Positions 54,490-62,597 of a stretch of DNA of 64,000 bases are shown here, piece after piece (within the stretch, counting starts at the first letter, position 1; each line of letters starts with the position of its first letter). Location: the NCBI RefSeq assembly GCF_011045215.1, contig NZ_CP049201.1. One strand, 5' to 3'. Made by a program: the position numbers and the translations under genes. The notes under the pieces were generated by a model that did not search any database, had not been told where the DNA came from, and saw nothing but the letters and a program-made list of their open reading frames with translations. This DNA is from Escherichia coli (GTDB taxonomy: Bacteria > Pseudomonadota > Gammaproteobacteria > Enterobacterales > Enterobacteriaceae).

Positions 54490-54523
54490 GATGACCGGGG
54501 CCTGAAGGAGAGTGACCTGATTA

Positions 54524-54595
54524 TCAGAAAGTCACATTCAGCGTGGCCTGACCGTTATAACCTTCAGCGCTGCTGCCGCTGACGCTGTGGGCATA
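54524..54595 (-). pseudogene. flu: 3'-terminal remnant of an autotransporter gene, consistent with antigen 43 (flu)
   Basis: Minus strand encodes [23 protein letters not shown]-stop, a typical autotransporter beta-barrel C-terminus ending in Phe; upstream reading frame is unrelated. Confidence 0.6.
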
Positions 54596-54754
54596 CCGGC
54601 AGGTACAAAACAGCATGGTCAGATAAAGTGGTTTTTCCCGGACATAAATGCTTCCCCTCTCTCATCCGCCAGAGAAGTATCAGTCCGTTGTGTGCAATTC
54701 CGTTCTGCATGATGAAGAGATTCAGCTGCCTTTTCGCAGACCATTAACCACTAT

Positions 54755-54800
54755 AAACGATCGATAGTAACGATCGATACCTGTTTTATCGATCGTTTTA
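54755..54800 (-). promoter_or_regulatory. Cluster of three GATC (Dam) sites in repeated AACGATCGATA motifs; resembles the agn43 phase-variation operator
   Basis: AACGATCGATA twice in direct orientation 13 bp apart plus inverted ATCGATCGTT, directly downstream of the YeeP-like GTPase gene where flu lies in CP4-44. Confidence 0.55.
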
Positions 54801-54912
54801 TTCTATTAACAGCAAGGCAGTCACGCAAGAGAAAGAGGTGGATATGAGGGGGTTGTGTCATGTTTTCAGTTGGTTAACGCAATGTAATCAGGCATTTCCC
54901 CTGGCAGACTGT

Positions 54913-55785
54913 TCAGAAGAAAATCCAGTTCCATACAGCGCGGGCAACAGAGACCACCGAGTCACGGACGGCACGCAGAACCGTGCGTGCAACAGAGGCA
55001 ATACAGACGCTCTCCGCCGTGTCAAATATCCGGTCCACCGCACCGGTAAACTGTTCACGGGCCTGAGACCGGACAGATTCCGTGCGCAGCTCGTCCTGCA
55101 GGCGGGTCATCAGGGGACTGGCGGCATGGTCGGGAAGCGCTGTCATGAGCGCACTGACCAGCATATCCAGTTCCCAGCCGGTGCAGGCCGATACGGCCAC
55201 AACCGGATGTACGGGCCGGAAGAGCCGGAATACCGCATCTGTTTTCTCACGAATGTTCTGTGCCTGTGCGGGAGAAGGCTGAATGCCGGCCATATCCCAT
55301 TCATGGCAGGGCTCCGTTTTGTCGGCCTGCGTCACCACAAACAGCACCTGCTGATGTCCCCGGTGCAGGATGTGTCGCCAGAAATACTCATCCACAGACA
55401 GGGCACGGTCATCGGCTTTAATCAGCCACAGTACCAGGTCAAGTTCAGGCAGAATGTCACGGTACAGGGCTTCATACTCTGCATCCCTGTCCCGGCTCTC
55501 GCCCACCCCGGGCAGGTCAGTGATAACCATGCTGTGACCGTGGCCACTCAGACGGAAGCGCTGCACTTCCCGGGTGCCGGCGTGAACATCACTGACCGGG
55601 GTGACCTCCCCCTGAAACAGTGCATTACAGAGTGAGGATTTACCGGCCCCGCTTTTACCCATAATGCCAATCACGGGTTCGTGACTGGTGAGTTTGCGCA
55701 GATGTTCCAGGATGTGACGGGAAAGTGAGTAAGGCAGGGAGGAGAGCGGTTTTTCAATTGCCTCAATGGCATCAGACGGATTCAT
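54913..55785 (-). CDS. yeeP: YeeP/YkfA/YfjP-family GTPase, 290 aa
   Basis: ORF 54913..55848; start at MNPSDAIEA; G1 motif GKSGAGKSS, G3 DLPG, G4 TQAD. Confidence 0.85.
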   Translation of the reverse strand: MNPSDAIEAIEKPLSSLPYSLSRHILEHLRKLTSHEPVIGIMGKSGAGKSSLCNALFQGEVTPVSDVHAGTREVQRFRLSGHGHSMVITDLPGVGESRDRDAEYEALYRDILPELDLVLWLIKADDRALSVDEYFWRHILHRGHQQVLFVVTQADKTEPCHEWDMAGIQPSPAQAQNIREKTDAVFRLFRPVHPVVAVSACTGWELDMLVSALMTALPDHAASPLMTRLQDELRTESVRSQAREQFTGAVDRIFDTAESVCIASVARTVLRAVRDSVVSVARAVWNWIFF

Positions 55786-55800
55786 ACATGTATTCCCGGT

Positions 55801-55842
55801 GAAAAAAGACAAAACCCCCGCACACCGGAAAGGTGGCGGGGG
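55801..55842 (-). terminator. Rho-independent terminator downstream of the frameshifted cargo gene
   Basis: Minus strand CCCCCGCCACC-TTTCC-GGTGTGCGGGGG followed by TTTTGTCTTTTTT; lies between stop at 55870 and GTPase start. Confidence 0.7.
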
Positions 55843-55869
55843 ACTCACGGAGATAATATATGTCTGAAA

Positions 55870-56788
55870 TTATCTGGAATGTCGGTACCTTTTATACTCT
55901 TCAACAATCAGGTCATGCAGCATTTCGCCGGTACTGAGTCTTCTGACCCTCGATAATTCTTTGAGCTGCGCCCTGGTTTCTGCGTCAAGAAAAAACTGTA
56001 CATTGACTTTATCTTCCTGCATTTTTTTGTACTTGCGCTGCGCCTTGGCCTTATTGAAACTGTTTCTGAAATTTTTTATATCGTCAGGTGAGGTGAGTGG
56101 ACAGGTAACCCATATGTCAAATGAAAGGTGAATTGCGTGGTAAATATCAGCAGAACCAGGAAAACTGGCCAGTTTTTCCAGTGCAATATTTTTTCCCTTC
56201 AAATAATTCCATGTCCATATGCATTCATGTTCGTTCTCCGGGAGGAGGTAACTGAAAGGACTCTTTGATTTAAATGCCCGCATCCATCTGTCTTTGGTCT
56301 GGATTATCCACTCATCCCGCAAATTCTTATCAGAAAGAATATCGAGAACTCTGAGTATTTGTCTGAACTGTGTCGATGAGTCCGACGGGAAGGCATTCCC
56401 TTCCAGATACTCTTCTTTAAGATACAGTTTATTCTTTTGAAGCAAGTCTGCGCTTATTTTTGCCCTGTTATTCTGGATAAACTGCATCAACAGATACCAG
56501 GAAAATAAGCATGCGCGTTCACTGCCCGCGATCCAGGATATTTTTTCCAGGGGGACCAGGAAGGCCAGGGCCTTCAGACGCATACCAGAAATTATTTGTT
56601 CAAGTTCAAAATCTGAAAGTGTGATGTTCAGATTTTCTCTGTTTTTTTTTTATGTAAGCGATAAAACGTTCCGGGGGATCATAAACATTAAGGGGCAGTA
56701 CGGAGATATTACGCTCTCCAAGATAATAAGAGTAATACGCATTTGTTCTTTCATTCATAACCTTATCCGACAAAATTTTCTGAACCAT
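55870..56788 (-). pseudogene. AT-rich uncharacterised gene split by a frameshift in an A10 tract; reconstructed product about 305 aa with C-terminal ribbon-helix-helix-like region
   Basis: ORFs 56606..56788 (60 aa) and 55870..56583 (237 aa) are on the same strand; the downstream frame stays open back to the A/T run at 56642..56651; removing one A fuses them; start ATG at 56788 has GGAGA upstream; C-terminus VNVQFFLDAETRAQLKELSRVRRLSTGEMLHDLIVEEYKRY has a beta-strand plus two-helix RHH pattern. Confidence 0.55.
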
Positions 56789-57343
56789 CCTCTTTCTCCG
56801 GCTGCTTAAAAATTAAACATAATAAGGTGATAATAATATGATAAAAAGAAGTTTATAATGGTATATTAAGATGGTCAATAAAAAGGCAATCTGCGCGCTG
56901 TATAGTCATTCTGACAGGAAATGCAGGAGGAAGGGAAGGTAACCGGCTTCGTTATGCTGACAGGAATACCTGTTATCATGGAAGTGCACTCATGTGGCCG
57001 ACGTAGCTTAAGAGGATGGAAGAGTGGAGACTGCAGACAGGGGGTATTGAAAGGTAAACATGTTTCGCCCGCCAGCTGCACCGGGGGCCAGCATCACTTT
57101 TTTTACGTTGTAACCCGGTATGCATTCCGGCTTTGATGATTACAGTCAGAGGGCAGCAGACTGACGTTATTTAACCGGACAGAAAAATTATGGACACTGA
57201 AATATCGTCTGTTAATACCTCGTTTGTCGGTGTGGTATTCCCTGTATTACCGGCGTCACCGATAAAGAGAGTTATAAACGCCAGAAAGGTACCTCCTTTA
57301 TGCCGGGGAACACTTACGGAAAATGAAGTCTGAAAAGGAGCAC

Positions 57344-57472
57344 AATGAAAAGAGGCGTGTCCCGTAAATATAACGAATCATCGCAGGATATACATTATCA
57401 GGTGATACCAGAGGGCATTAAACTGTCGCCACGGATAAGAATATACAACATTTCTGATAACAAAACATCATA
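57344..57472 (+). CDS. Hypothetical small ORF, 42 aa (MKRGVSRKYNESSQDIHYQVIPEGIKLSPRIRIYNISDNKTS)
   Basis: ATG preceded by AAGGAG with a 4-nt spacer; below ORF-track size cutoff; coordinates approximate; no homology known to me. Confidence 0.2.
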
Positions 57473-57988
57473 ACGTGTTTCAGATATGTTCCGGCATCAG
57501 TCTGACGGATATTATTTCCCGGTAAAACAAACCGGCTACTGTAACGGTTAACTGTATCTGCATAAATTATTTATGATGAAAGAACAGTATTACGGATTCA
57601 AATATCATCCTGTTTGCATTCAGGCGGACATTCCCGGATGCCGGAAAGAATATCCTGCAGGCTGAGTGAGTCTCTTCCACAGTGCCGGGATCGCTGTCGC
57701 CACGTACATATTGTCACCAGGATGGGTATGTACCGCAGCATGCCATTTCTGGTGAATAACCGCACCTGCACATTCAGTCTGCTGAGAACCTGGCGTGTAT
57801 CGGGCTGTAAAGAACATCCCTGTCCGTGGCTCCTCTGGTGGTGTTGCCTGCTCAGCAATGACAGGATGCCCTTAAGACGCCCGTCATGGCTCAGTATGAT
57901 GACGACGAACACGCTCTGCAGGTGAGCATGCGGGGCCGGGAGCATCATCATTTCCGTATTTTGTCACACCTTCCGGAAGCAACCGGCA

Positions 57989-58606
57989 TCAGTTGCGGCT
58001 ATCGTCAACCGTTGTGCGGTATGCCAGGAGCACGTACTGATCCATCAGATCCGTCAGTGCTGCGCTCTGCCTCTGACGGTTGATGATCCATTCCTCCAGC
58101 TCTTTTTCTGATTTCCGTTTCAGGTTCTCTTTCCAGTCTTCAAGGCTGTTTCCGGTCATTAAATCAAGCCAGCAAAGCCAGACCAGTTTGAGGCGCAACT
58201 CCGTGCCACCAAACTGACGGAAGAGGCTGATCAGTTTATTTGCCAGAGAACGCTGCCTCAGACGTTCACATTCAGACAGGAGAATGCCTTCCAGCATCGG
58301 ATGATGAACCAGCAGATGTTCACTGGTGCATAAATTCACTATCAGATCATCATCCAGGGGCGGCGTGGCCCGTTTGTCAGGGCCATAAATCAGCCGGTGC
58401 AGGCTCTGGGGTACGATGGCAATCTCCGGTTTTTCACCATTGAATGACACCCAACCGGGCGTCAGATTATGGAAGTCGTAGATATTCGGATGACACACGC
58501 CCCAGGATACGGCGTGCCGGGTGAAGCCGGTCAGCCATTTCTGGTAGCTTTCGTGGAGCCATTCGTAGCGGGTCTGATACTGTTGTTTCATTTTCATATT
58601 CCTCAC
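57989..58606 (-). CDS. Uncharacterised protein, 205 aa, immediately downstream of the alpA-like gene
   Basis: ORF track; same strand and 80 bp from alpA-like stop; no recognisable motif. Confidence 0.5.
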   Translation of the reverse strand: MRNMKMKQQYQTRYEWLHESYQKWLTGFTRHAVSWGVCHPNIYDFHNLTPGWVSFNGEKPEIAIVPQSLHRLIYGPDKRATPPLDDDLIVNLCTSEHLLVHHPMLEGILLSECERLRQRSLANKLISLFRQFGGTELRLKLVWLCWLDLMTGNSLEDWKENLKRKSEKELEEWIINRQRQSAALTDLMDQYVLLAYRTTVDDSRN

Positions 58607-58685
58607 GGGGATATAACAGGCAGCAGAATGCCGCCGGCAGGCCGGGGATTACGTCTGCTGCGGGTGAACGGATAACGGTCAGAAA

Positions 58686-58892
58686 TTACGGGCGGGGCTG
58701 TGCAATACGCGCCTGCAGCCAGGCTTCCACTTCACTTTTCAGCCAGCGGGAGCTGCGGCCCAGCTTGATGGGAGCCGGAAAGGCCCCATCCCTGATGAGC
58801 CTGTAAAACCACTTATCTGTCAGGCCGGTCAGTTGAGTGATAAATGCCATGTCGACCATCTGGTCATCCATCAGTGAAACTGGGGTAGCCAT
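58686..58892 (-). CDS. alpA: AlpA-family prophage transcriptional regulator / excisionase-like protein, 68 aa
   Basis: C-terminal 68 codons of ORF 58686..59087 starting MATPVSLMDD after GGAGG; ITQLTGLTDKWFYRLIRDGAFPAPIKLGRSSRWLKSEVEAWL fits AlpA/Xis-like HTH pattern. Confidence 0.75.
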   Translation of the reverse strand: MATPVSLMDDQMVDMAFITQLTGLTDKWFYRLIRDGAFPAPIKLGRSSRWLKSEVEAWLQARIAQPRP

Positions 58893-59340
58893 GAGAATGT
58901 TCCTCCGGATGTTGTTAAACCAGCCGGTGTGGTCATGAAAACAGCGCGCCACCTTCACCGGCATAACAACCGGGGAGAAACGTAAAAAATAATCGGGAAT
59001 GTGACCGCCAGGAGATAAACGGGGAGGTTGCGGTGGCTGAGCCGTACCGGTATACCGGGTGGTTGTTGCGAAAAGATGCTTCCGCACGCACGCGCGATAA
59101 AGAGGGGATAGTTTTCGTGAGGACAGGGAGAGAAGCAGGCGTTCTGATAATTGCAGAGTTGTTTTCGGAGGTGGTTACAGTGAGTCAGCCCGTTCCTGGC
59201 GAGGAGGAGACTGATATCACCGATGGGATAAGGCTGTCTGATTGGTATTATAAATATAAGAAGTCATCAGAGAGTAACGTAAAGGATTTGCCAGAGTAAG
59301 CTAAGAGAGCAAATCTCTCCGGTAACAGAGCGCTGTGAAT

Positions 59341-59391
59341 CGTTCATGTATCAGAGTGCAGATACATGAACGCTGATGCGTAAAATCAGCA
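59341..59391. other. Two adjacent inverted repeats (perfect 12-bp stem CGTTCATGTATC/GATACATGAACG, then GCTGAT..ATCAGC)
   Basis: Seen directly; no U-tract; possible protein-binding palindrome; coordinates approximate. Confidence 0.4.
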
Positions 59392-59966
59392 GTGACACGC
59401 CAGCTCCCCCTGTGCCCATTCCTGTATAAGACATGAACTGAGCGTATTAATGCTCCTGCCCTGAGACTGAGCCGGTGAGTGAGGGGCTGAGAAATCCCTC
59501 TTGACACTGCTCTAAACCAGAAATACTTCCCCGGTTGTTGCGGTGCGTCCGGATCCCCGATAACGGAACACTAAGGCTGTATTGCGGGACACCTGGTAAG
59601 TGGCAGCCCGTAATACGTCAGGAGACGCGGGAAAAGTGAATTCCCACACGCGTTATAAACTTACCCTTGCGGAGCTGGAAGCCTTTAACTCTGCCGTTGA
59701 CAACCGGCTGGCAGAACTGACAATGAACAAACTTTACGATCGCGCGCCGGCTTCCGTCTGGAAATATGTCACCTGAATATTGAAGCAGCGCTACGATGAC
59801 TCCGGTGTTATCTGCACCGGAGGACCGGGAACATTAAGCGGTATAGCGACAACAAAGAATTCGAAATCAAAAGGGAATGGTGCCGGAGGCGTGGGCGGTA
59901 ATAGGCTGATTTTCAGGTATTACCGGCCTGTATCTGCTGAAGGGGGCTCGTATTTGTCGGGGCTGC

Positions 59967-60003
59967 GTATTCCGCTCGATTCGATCACGGATTGGCGGAA
60001 TAC
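59967..60003. repeat. Orphan fragment resembling the terminal repeat of the IS21-family element
   Basis: GTATTCCGCTCGATTCGATCACGGATTGG closely matches the reverse complement of the right end of the 50.7-53.4 kb IS (CCAATCCGTGATCGAATAGAGCGGAATAC). Confidence 0.5.
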
Positions 60004-60491
60004 CTAACTGTGATTGATTCAGGTACCATTTTGCAGGGATCCGGTGCGTTACTGTCTGGCACAACAAACGCAGCGGGTCGCTCTGCTCCGCCGATTCCTG
60101 ATAATCCCTCCCCAGTAACCTACTGCAACAGTACAAATACACTGACGCCTGAAACGGTAACCAGAATCAGCACCAGCAGTAACTCAGTAAACAGAGCAGA
60201 CGATCGGTCTTCCGGTAATAACCGGAAGGAACGACAGCGCCACAATACAGGCAACACACTGTATTATGAGTAATCGAATTACCGCAATCCCCGCATTTCT
60301 TTTTGCGTATCACGATAGCTCCCTCGCCACGCCTTATCCGTAACCGGTTTTTTACATTAAAAAAAACAACGCCGGGAATTCAATCGTCAGTCCGGAGACG
60401 ACCGTTCGGGTTATCACAGAGAGCCTGAGCAGGGGGGCTGCGCATTTTTTACGATGTGGCTATTCCGTATGAACCATACGGAGATATAACC

Positions 60492-61061
60492 ATGACCTAC
60501 AAATACAACCCCTTCTGGCAGCAACGTATTCGTGAGACGGTGCGGCACGCACTGAATGTTCATCCCCGCCTGACGGCATTGCGGGTTGACCTGCGTTTCC
60601 CGGATGTACCGGCAGCAACGGACGCAGCTGTGATATCCCGCTTCATCAATGCCCTGAAAGCCCGAATCGACGCTTACCAGAAACGTAAGCATCGGGAAGG
60701 TAAACGCGTGCATTCCACAACCCTGCATTACGTCTGGGCCCGGGAGTTTGGGGAGTGCAAAGGTAAAAAACACTATCACCTGATGCTGCTGGTCAACCGG
60801 GATACCTGGTGTCGTGCCGGTGATTACCGCGCTCCGGGATCACTGGCCGGGATGATTAAACAGGCGTGGTGCAGTGCCCTGGGAGTGGATGTCGGGTGCC
60901 ATGCCACGCTGGTGCATTTTCCGGCCTGGCCGGCGGTGTGGCTGGCGCGTAATGATGACACCGGCTTTCAGCAAGTGCTGGAACGTGCTGACTATCTGGC
61001 GAAGGAGCATACCAAAGTTCACTGCACCGGTGAGCGCAACTTTGGCTGCAGTCGTGGCTGA
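60492..61061 (+). CDS. Inovirus Gp2-like / YagK-YfjJ-family protein, 189 aa
   Basis: ORF 60456..61061; start at ATG 60492 after GGAGA; KKHYHLMLLVNRD segment recalled from YagK/YfjJ-type proteins; family assignment from memory. Confidence 0.5.
   Translation: MTYKYNPFWQQRIRETVRHALNVHPRLTALRVDLRFPDVPAATDAAVISRFINALKARIDAYQKRKHREGKRVHSTTLHYVWAREFGECKGKKHYHLMLLVNRDTWCRAGDYRAPGSLAGMIKQAWCSALGVDVGCHATLVHFPAWPAVWLARNDDTGFQQVLERADYLAKEHTKVHCTGERNFGCSRG

Positions 61062-61628: not shown

Positions 61629-62597
<969 letters not shown>

Follow-up and report, generated by a model that had tools for sequence, protein, structure and literature searches.

Islands of the CP4-57/CP4-44 type are present in most Escherichia coli genomes, often in several copies, and bring with them genes for adhesins, toxin-antitoxin pairs and anti-restriction or defence functions. 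To our knowledge, the control of their excision and expression is poorly understood, apart from the parts played by AlpA and the integrase. In better described mobile elements, a single regulator gene near int/att is divergent from the excision/replication operon, as is the case for lambda cI, SaPI Stl and SXT SetR. Here we describe a gene that occupies a comparable position in E. coli islands. It lies at 55870..56788 on the minus strand of a 64,000-nt stretch of contig NZ_CP049201.1 (assembly GCF_011045215.1), which we refer to as the window, and it is split there by a frameshift. When intact, it encodes a 305-amino-acid (aa) protein with a predicted C-terminal ribbon-helix-helix (RHH) module. 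The analogy to the master repressors is one of position and not of membership, as cI, Stl and SetR have a helix-turn-helix fold, whereas an RHH is found here, and repressor activity of the new family is predicted.

The frameshifted gene comprises 919 nt in the window and 918 nt in its intact form, and belongs to the family of WP_000250228.1 ("Ybl124"). The first-pass annotation of the window, made from the sequence letters alone, had described two open reading frames (ORFs) separated only by a frameshift in a run of ten adenines (A10), and ORF calling together with the sequence itself confirmed this. The 5' fragment (56606..56788, minus; 60 aa) starts at the ATG at 56788, directly downstream of the Shine-Dalgarno sequence GGAGAAAGAGG on the same strand, and contains the authentic residues 1-48 followed by an out-of-frame tail. 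The 3' fragment (55870..56583, minus; 237 aa) begins at the internal Met69. Both ORFs are on the minus strand with frames offset by +1, and the insertion site is the A10 homopolymer at 56642..56651 (minus; T10 when read on the plus strand). The intact allele has A9 at this position, within the codons ATA AAA AAA AAC (I46 K47 K48 N49).

Removal of one A restored a continuous product of 305 aa, as had been predicted, and the repaired coding sequence was identical at 918/918 bases to the intact WP_000250228.1 gene of E. coli 2018-11-3CC (L001; locus numbers are our own), where it is annotated as "hypothetical protein". The true frame of the 3' part is open from 56649 down to 55873, and our family profile (A2) matched the window at 55873-56649 with E=4.9e-69. 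Thirteen full-length homologs of 48-99% identity all share, without variation, the peptide IAYIKKNRE that spans the frameshift. Because of this invariance and the identity of the repaired coding sequence to the intact gene, we regard the fused 305-aa frame as the real one. The locus is a one-base (A9 to A10) frameshifted copy of a normally intact gene, and the split is an ordinary one-base homopolymer change. The low GC content noted previously was also found (40.9% in the gene region, 47.7% in the window).

The frequency of the A10 allele was determined with a 100-nt probe across the tract, which was compared to 5426 complete E. coli genomes. The gene was found in 1370 of these, and the exact A10 100-mer in only five of the 1370; the other 55 best matches, as well as all other evenly sampled ones, had a 99-nt target, i.e., A9. 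The A10 allele of GW-AmxH19 carries the PGAP label "hypothetical protein, frameshifted". Once repaired, it is identical to another intact allele (L002) and differs at 19 positions from the window allele, so that the extra A must have arisen, or been mis-called, independently on two backgrounds, neither of which shows any further change. A UniProt entry of 237 aa is identical to the 3' ORF. Across genera the tract reads A9 in E. coli, A8 in Serratia and AAAAAGAA (interrupted) in Edwardsiella, and it is absent in Citrobacter and Yersinia; the Lys-Lys-Asn residues are retained within the close subfamily despite these differences. The ratio of nonsynonymous to synonymous substitution rates (dN/dS) was 0.23 between E. 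coli alleles and 0.10 in comparison to Serratia, where dS is saturated. Judged by this sequence conservation, purifying selection acts on the gene, and it is functional. Copies listed or sampled in other E. coli genomes are overwhelmingly A9, and the gene is normally intact.

The window acquired its tenth A either by recent mutational slippage or through an error of sequencing or assembly at the homopolymer. An error, in which case the organism would have A9 and an intact gene, concerns only the reality of the split, and we take it seriously, while leaning against it. The total absence of other differences in the repaired coding sequence fits an error, as do the few A10 records on the second background, which are otherwise unchanged, as recurrent technical errors predict. 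However, genuine slippage at A9 is likewise expected and would look alike, and the allele recurs in independent projects, as seen from PGAP-annotated complete genomes and the UniProt entry. If real, the A10 allele would truncate the protein after residue 48, and its function would be lost or strongly reduced. RNA polymerase slips on runs of at least 9 A, and some in-frame full-length product could possibly be made from the A10 allele through such slippage. The third explanation raised for the tract, a phase-variation (contingency) switch with frequent on and off states, appears extremely improbable to us. A homopolymer of 9-10 nt within a coding sequence is slippage-prone, and A10 was seen on at least two allele backgrounds, but both states of a contingency gene should be common, and A10 is confined to the five genomes named above among copies that were otherwise listed or sampled as A9. 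Nor is the repeat maintained in the orthologs of Serratia, Edwardsiella, Citrobacter and Yersinia, although the residues it encodes remain; the tract is explained by the Lys-Lys-Asn codons and not by selection for mutability.

To define the family, we searched 1.84 billion cluster representatives with the profile and obtained 272 representatives at 50% identity (E<=1e-3), mostly of 290-330 aa and aligned end to end. In AFDB50, 135 structures matched at E<=1e-3, from Gammaproteobacteria plus Alcaligenes. Most are labelled "uncharacterized" and a few "CopG family transcriptional regulator", while the entries of E. coli 55989 and UMEA 3162-1 are labelled "Ybl124". A word-indexed search returned only Enterobacterales homologs, all of about 305 aa and all "hypothetical". 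The repaired protein gave no match in PADLOC, NCBIfam or a sequence search of the PDB; in Pfam it matched only Pox_TAA1 (E=0.05), which we consider noise, and in PHROGs only an Arc-like family, weakly (E=0.1, residues 243-299). No relatives were found in IMG/VR viral contigs or GenBank phages, and no conserved catalytic-looking motif was seen in the family alignments. The family thus consists of unnamed proteins of about 300 aa from Gammaproteobacteria without a Pfam, NCBIfam or PADLOC model.

An AlphaFold2 model built from an alignment of 68 family sequences was all helical and of high confidence (pLDDT 91.4, pTM 0.81). The N-terminal all-alpha region (residues 1-185; 56233..56788, minus) contains the conserved motifs RAC-x-W-x-W and FPSDS. 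This part had no recognised relative by sequence and no convincing structural relative, and a Foldseek search against the PDB gave nothing at E<=1e-3. The statement of the first-pass annotation that about 260 N-terminal residues match no recognised family therefore stands after searches of PADLOC, NCBIfam, Pfam, the PDB and PHROGs and with Foldseek.

Residues 186-305 (55873..56232, minus) form a predicted DNA-binding module, in which three helices, including a basic one, precede the RHH (about residues 256-305; 55873..56022, minus). The conserved basic helix NKAKAQRKYKK is located directly before the RHH. The family profile matched the RHH protein SvtR (2kel) with E=1.4e-3, and CopG weakly. 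Of the 68 family members, 20 matched RepB-RCR_reg (PF10723) at E<=0.1 and 3 at E<=1e-3, and 6 matched RHH_1. Distant members matched an Arc-like PHROG (E=7e-4), the IncFII copy-control repressor RepA/CopB (NF010256, 1.6e-4) and IncL/M RepC (1.6e-3). All of these matches fall on one stretch of about 45 residues, for which the profiles indicate a strand, a helix, a turn and a second helix; in the model, residues 259-268 are extended and non-helical, followed by helices at 269-282 and 286-304. We accept the RHH assignment because the sub-threshold matches share this stretch and agree with the model. The proposal of an RHH-like tail in the first-pass annotation is hence supported by profile comparison and by structure prediction. 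As far as sequence searches indicate, this type of RHH DNA-binding protein, with its novel large helical domain, has not been described previously.

Among described proteins, the small RHH repressors (CopG/RepB-RCR_reg, CopB-RepA2, RepC of IncL/M, Arc/Mnt and SvtR) share the C-terminal strand-helix-helix of about 45 residues with the family and are its only sequence matches. Further similarities to autoregulated RHH repressors are the neighbouring rolling-circle-Rep-like gene and the repeats or palindromes in the promoter of the gene itself. In contrast, these repressors are 45-90 aa long and consist of barely more than the RHH, whereas the RHH described here ends a 305-aa protein with a large helical domain, and its DNA binding is predicted. 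An RHH antitoxin of a type II toxin-antitoxin pair is likewise a poor fit: the RHH is found at the C-terminus of a 305-aa protein, the gene is parted from the downstream GTPase gene by a terminator hairpin in five genera, and elsewhere the downstream gene is an integrase or host gene.

The whole C-terminal module showed a weak resemblance to MatP (PF06303 and PF17414; PDB 4d8j, 7nyw). MatP was the best full-module PDB match by sequence profile, with profile positions 191-301 aligning to MatP residues 10-131 in hmmsearch (E=0.054). With hhalign the probability was 32% and the pairwise E-value 4.9e-4; MatP entered this comparison as a single sequence, its homolog search having yielded only E. 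coli sequences of ~99% identity. MatP was also the top Foldseek match in the PDB, which was not significant (probability 0.6, E=1.3, TM-score 0.31), and one of the 68 family members matched MatP_C (E=0.059), none of them past the Pfam threshold. In both proteins, a helical bundle, whose first helix is rich in Trp (ECIWTWNYLKGK vs. SGWKWKYLVKKH), and a basic helix come immediately before the RHH. MatP differs in being a core chromosomal gene product of about 150 aa with a coiled coil after the RHH; the family described here is found in mobile islands, has an additional N-terminal region of about 185 aa, and ends at the second RHH helix at residue 305. We therefore reject membership in the MatP family, the C-terminal coiled coil being absent, and treat the MatP-like character of the module as a lead only.

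In the window, the gene is flanked by an AlpA/excisionase-type gene (58686..58892, minus) and, downstream, by a YeeP/YfjP-type GTPase gene (54913..55785, minus) that is a conserved neighbour in the Enterobacterales subfamily. The first-pass annotation had named both flanking genes correctly. It had further called the interval between them variable, and this holds between E. coli island subtypes, in which homology breaks exactly at the stop codon of the gene. When the E. coli junctions were surveyed by means of the GTPase-leader sequence, which occurs at about 8030 places in 4090 genomes, the 305-aa gene was found at 1495 of them (about 19%).

We compared the synteny of 14 loci from distinct family clusters with homologs of 18-78% identity. 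In 13 of the 14, the gene is located beside and divergent from the AlpA / YagK-YfjJ (Gp2-like Rep) module, which bears out the co-occurrence with alpA/yeeP-type islands that had been put forward for checking; the exception (L013) is interrupted by an insertion sequence (IS) element and a contig end. Divergence from AlpA and/or YagK_YfjJ was observed in L004, L006, L008-L012, L014, L015 and L017-L021. In Serratia, Edwardsiella, Citrobacter and Yersinia/Morganella, the gene directly precedes a YeeP-type GTPase gene of the same orientation, and AlpA, in some cases accompanied by YagK_YfjJ, is divergent from it. In metagenomic or genomic islands (L012, L014, L015), it lies between the integrase and a divergent YagK_YfjJ-AlpA pair, and in L017 between the integrase and a divergent AlpA. 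In L018 it is divergent from AlpA, with a Rep-like gene beyond AlpA and host genes downstream. The Neptuniibacter homolog is divergent from YagK_YfjJ and the Chromohalobacter homolog from AlpA. On large conjugative Klebsiella plasmids, the gene heads a DUF905-DUF932-antirestriction-RadC-YeeU/CbtA arm opposite the Gp2-AlpA arm. Thus, the gene is found where the leftward AlpA/Rep arm and the rightward arm of the island diverge, while the cargo around the homologs differs widely (RHS toxins, BREX, arsenic resistance). Going by this conserved position, we conclude that the gene is part of the island backbone (control region) and not random cargo.

Conserved elements were also found upstream of the gene. 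In the 5' leader/promoter of the window copy, a block at 56812..56844 (minus) is composed of three tandem 11-bp units (TTATCAtatta / TTATCAcctta / TTATGTttaat) just upstream of the Shine-Dalgarno sequence. This periodic block is conserved in E. coli and three further genera well beyond the surrounding spacer, and Serratia, Edwardsiella and Citrobacter retain its core TATCACCTTATT with proteins that are only 39-68% identical. Additional copies of the core motif in the window were not significant (4 matches; 2 of 100 shuffles reach 4). In the distant subfamily, a palindrome CTAC-N0-3-GTAG (often TACGTAGT) was seen in 7 of 8 loci no more than 120 nt ahead of the start codon, against a background of 0.016 per 120 nt, and is essentially the sole such site in each locus of 9-17 kb. 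Autoregulated RHH repressors use helically phased repeats and palindromes at their promoters, and the upstream repeats and palindromes of this family may well be operators. The plausible promoter of the first-pass annotation fared less clearly: a promoter-like site, TTGACC-17 nt-TAAACT, is present at 56850..56878 (minus; 9/12 consensus matches), but sites of this kind were not above shuffle background (8 vs. 4.5 +/- 2.1 expected). As a separate observation, the palindrome lies 27-97 nt upstream of distant members (L012 7931, L013 503, L014 7904, L015 1861, L017 2571, L018 6974 and L020 6055) and is accompanied by a second motif, CATCATAAA(A/T)AC, about 30-40 nt further upstream.

We propose that the family comprises dimeric RHH regulators of island control, acting on their own promoter and probably on the AlpA/Rep arm, and that the A10 allele removes this regulator; in our estimate the chances of this proposal are about even. 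The protein would dimerise through the RHH, bind the upstream elements and repress its own promoter. It would probably also repress the divergent arm with AlpA (excision) and YagK-YfjJ (rolling-circle Rep-like), and by acting on both it would serve as an island maintenance repressor. The helical N-terminal part of about 185-250 aa may act in oligomerisation or higher-order assembly, or in signal sensing, and the window island would be left without its regulator by the A10 allele. A more far-reaching version, which we consider tentative and rather doubtful, is that the family is the so far unrecognised master repressor of a very large class of gammaproteobacterial AlpA / YagK-YfjJ islands, with an N-terminal part that senses an inducer and with A10 as a natural de-repressed or locked variant. 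This class of islands includes those of E. coli with Ag43, the YeeP GTPase, antirestriction genes, RadC and CbtA/CbeA; an inducing signal, e.g., a phage or plasmid protein, would release excision and replication.

Several observations weigh against a regulator of this kind. Every RHH match is below the curated family thresholds. No characterised homolog was found, and literature searches for WP_000250228, WP_001536286 and Ybl124 gave nothing. About 60-80% of the protein, namely its N-terminal part, is without an assigned role. The upstream elements are near the start of the family gene itself and not near the AlpA/Rep promoters, so that only autoregulation is directly suggested by them, and the repeat block of E. 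coli is rich in AT and might be mere promoter or UP-element sequence. Compared to other genera, E. coli has the module of AlpA and the gene of about 200 aa in inverted orientation, and the Gp2-like gene lies at a distance of 3.7 kb, which means that the layout of a divergent switch is not intact in the window.

The first-pass annotation had instead suggested a cargo gene that is possibly defence-related, and in favour of an anti-phage or abortive-infection protein with a DNA-binding tail are the location of the gene in the interval that carries abpAB and rnlAB in CP4-57, its low GC content, its uncharacterised N-terminal domain and its presence in only a minority of E. coli island copies. Yet its position beside AlpA/YagK is fixed over the whole identity range sampled and in islands with differing cargo, its domain relatives are repressors, it lacks a conserved catalytic-looking motif and it is absent from the phage collections. 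Searches of PADLOC-DB v2 gave 0 matches, whether with the E. coli protein or with any of 10 distant members and even with E-value limits of 0.1 to 10, a negative that is compatible with an undescribed defence system. We consider a defence function very unlikely. Somewhat less remote, though still unlikely, is a role as an accessory DNA-binding factor for the YagK/YfjJ protein (inovirus Gp2-like, HUH-type) that binds the origin of replication or transfer of the island and is not mainly a transcription repressor, or as a MatP-like DNA organiser. RHH-plus-HUH partnerships are well established, with RHH accessory proteins acting in relaxosomes, and the gene immediately adjoins and diverges from YagK_YfjJ in L006, L012, L014, L015, L019 and others. 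AlpA or other genes intervene, however, in the E. coli, Serratia, Citrobacter and Yersinia loci, an adjacent YagK gene is missing in L017 and L020, and the conserved palindrome is at the promoter of the family gene itself. The MatP-like signals are weak but repeated across hmmsearch, hhalign and Foldseek; all remain below significance, and the coiled coil of MatP is absent.

In K-12 CP4-57, a gene of similar size is found in an equivalent position: yfjH (b2623, 318 aa; L016 4645..5601) lies between the integrase gene (intA) and alpA and is divergent from alpA, as is the family gene in L012, L014, L015 and L017. YfjH was rejected as a family member, as the A2 HMM did not match it at E<=10 and the hhalign probability was 0.5%. 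It is a positional analogue only and may be a functional one. By analogy to lambdoid immunity regions, in which alternative non-homologous modules occupy one slot of related elements, the slot could be functionally conserved and its occupant exchangeable.

The terminator-like hairpin downstream of the gene requires a different assignment from the one given initially. Directly after the stop codon follows a conserved motif CAGACATATATTATC (consensus CAGAYAKATATYATC; 55852..55866, minus), and between the gene and the GTPase gene lies an intrinsic-terminator-like hairpin, CCCCCGC...GCGGGGG, with a T-run (55802..55842, minus). Five genera have a hairpin with T-run here, their stems being unrelated in sequence. 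In K-12 CP4-57, the same motif and hairpin precede yfjP, and the upstream gene there is rnlB; therefore, we assign the hairpin to the GTPase leader. The hairpin described as the gene's own terminator is thus real, T-run included, but it is part of a conserved leader of the neighbouring gene. Given the hairpin between them, transcription of the gene together with the GTPase gene is not obligatory, and we regard the gene as monocistronic.

We located this leader at 55785..55869 (minus) in the window, upstream of yfjP in K-12 CP4-57 (L016 14640..14710), and in L004 (8919..9002), L006 (8919..9008), L008 (8928..9019) and L010 (8943..9042). Its order of motif CAGAYAKATATYATC, GC-rich hairpin with T-run and ribosome binding site is the same with or without the 305-aa gene upstream. 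In single-sequence minimum free energy folds of four out of five leaders (E. coli, Serratia, Citrobacter, Yersinia), the motif region forms part of a long-range stem, its partner sequence lying 3' of the terminator hairpin and at or close to the start of the GTPase gene. RNAalifold gave no pairs in a consensus structure of the spacer between the gene and the GTPase gene, whose non-homologous hairpins cannot be aligned by MAFFT. The AlpA protein of Pseudomonas has been proven to act as an antiterminator, by which an intrinsic terminator is bypassed (PMC7969949, PMC9371919). By analogy, one may speculate that the hairpin of the GTPase leader is an AlpA-controlled terminator.

For the window itself, the outcome is mostly corrective: the gene is split by one base, it is not evidently a defence gene, and its presumed terminator is backbone sequence of the GTPase leader. 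More generally, the family provides a conserved, unannotated, predicted DNA-binding protein with candidate operators at the point where the control region diverges. With it, about a quarter of complete E. coli genomes gain a candidate regulator, and so do related gammaproteobacterial islands, including copies on large Klebsiella resistance plasmids.

One such plasmid copy was inspected on the Klebsiella plasmid p1-7011.62-NDM1 (IncFIB/IncHI1B), where 56142..71053 (L021) represents a complete AlpA/Gp2...DUF932-antirestriction-RadC-YeeU/CbtA island; its family member is 23% identical. Islands of this kind occur on 212-383-kb plasmids of Klebsiella, Citrobacter, Raoultella and E. coli, which are mostly conjugative by MOB-suite.

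Further observations were made on the surroundings of the gene. In E. coli islands, AlpA and the next gene of about 200 aa (57989..58892 in the window) are transcribed toward the 305-aa gene, and the same pair is directed away from it in Serratia, Citrobacter and Yersinia (e.g., L004 6692..7592). The AlpA module has apparently been inverted in the lineage of E. coli. About 2.8 kb with an Ag43/Cah autotransporter gene are missing from the window in comparison to the otherwise 99.7%-identical island of E. coli 2018-11-3CC (window 54586..54600 vs. L001 1993..4807). The two alignment blocks share 15 nt, which points to a deletion between short repeats; the exact Ag43-less junction was found in one piece in no complete E. 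coli genome of the collection. At 61629..62051 (minus), an ORF of 140 aa matches IS110-family transposases (NF033542, E=3.9e-31), but only over their C-terminal ~130 residues. The equivalent position of L001 holds a full IS110 transposase gene, and the element in the window may be truncated or frameshifted. A Rfam search of 54500..60500 gave no match at E<=1. Between the 305-aa gene and the 205-aa ORF (57989..58606) lie 1.2 kb without a convincing gene (56789..57988), of which only the first ~300 nt can be aligned with the 408-nt spacer of Serratia. This stretch contains several inverted repeats and a 16-nt direct repeat, GTCATTCTGACAGGAA / GTTATGCTGACAGGAA, at 56905 and 56951.

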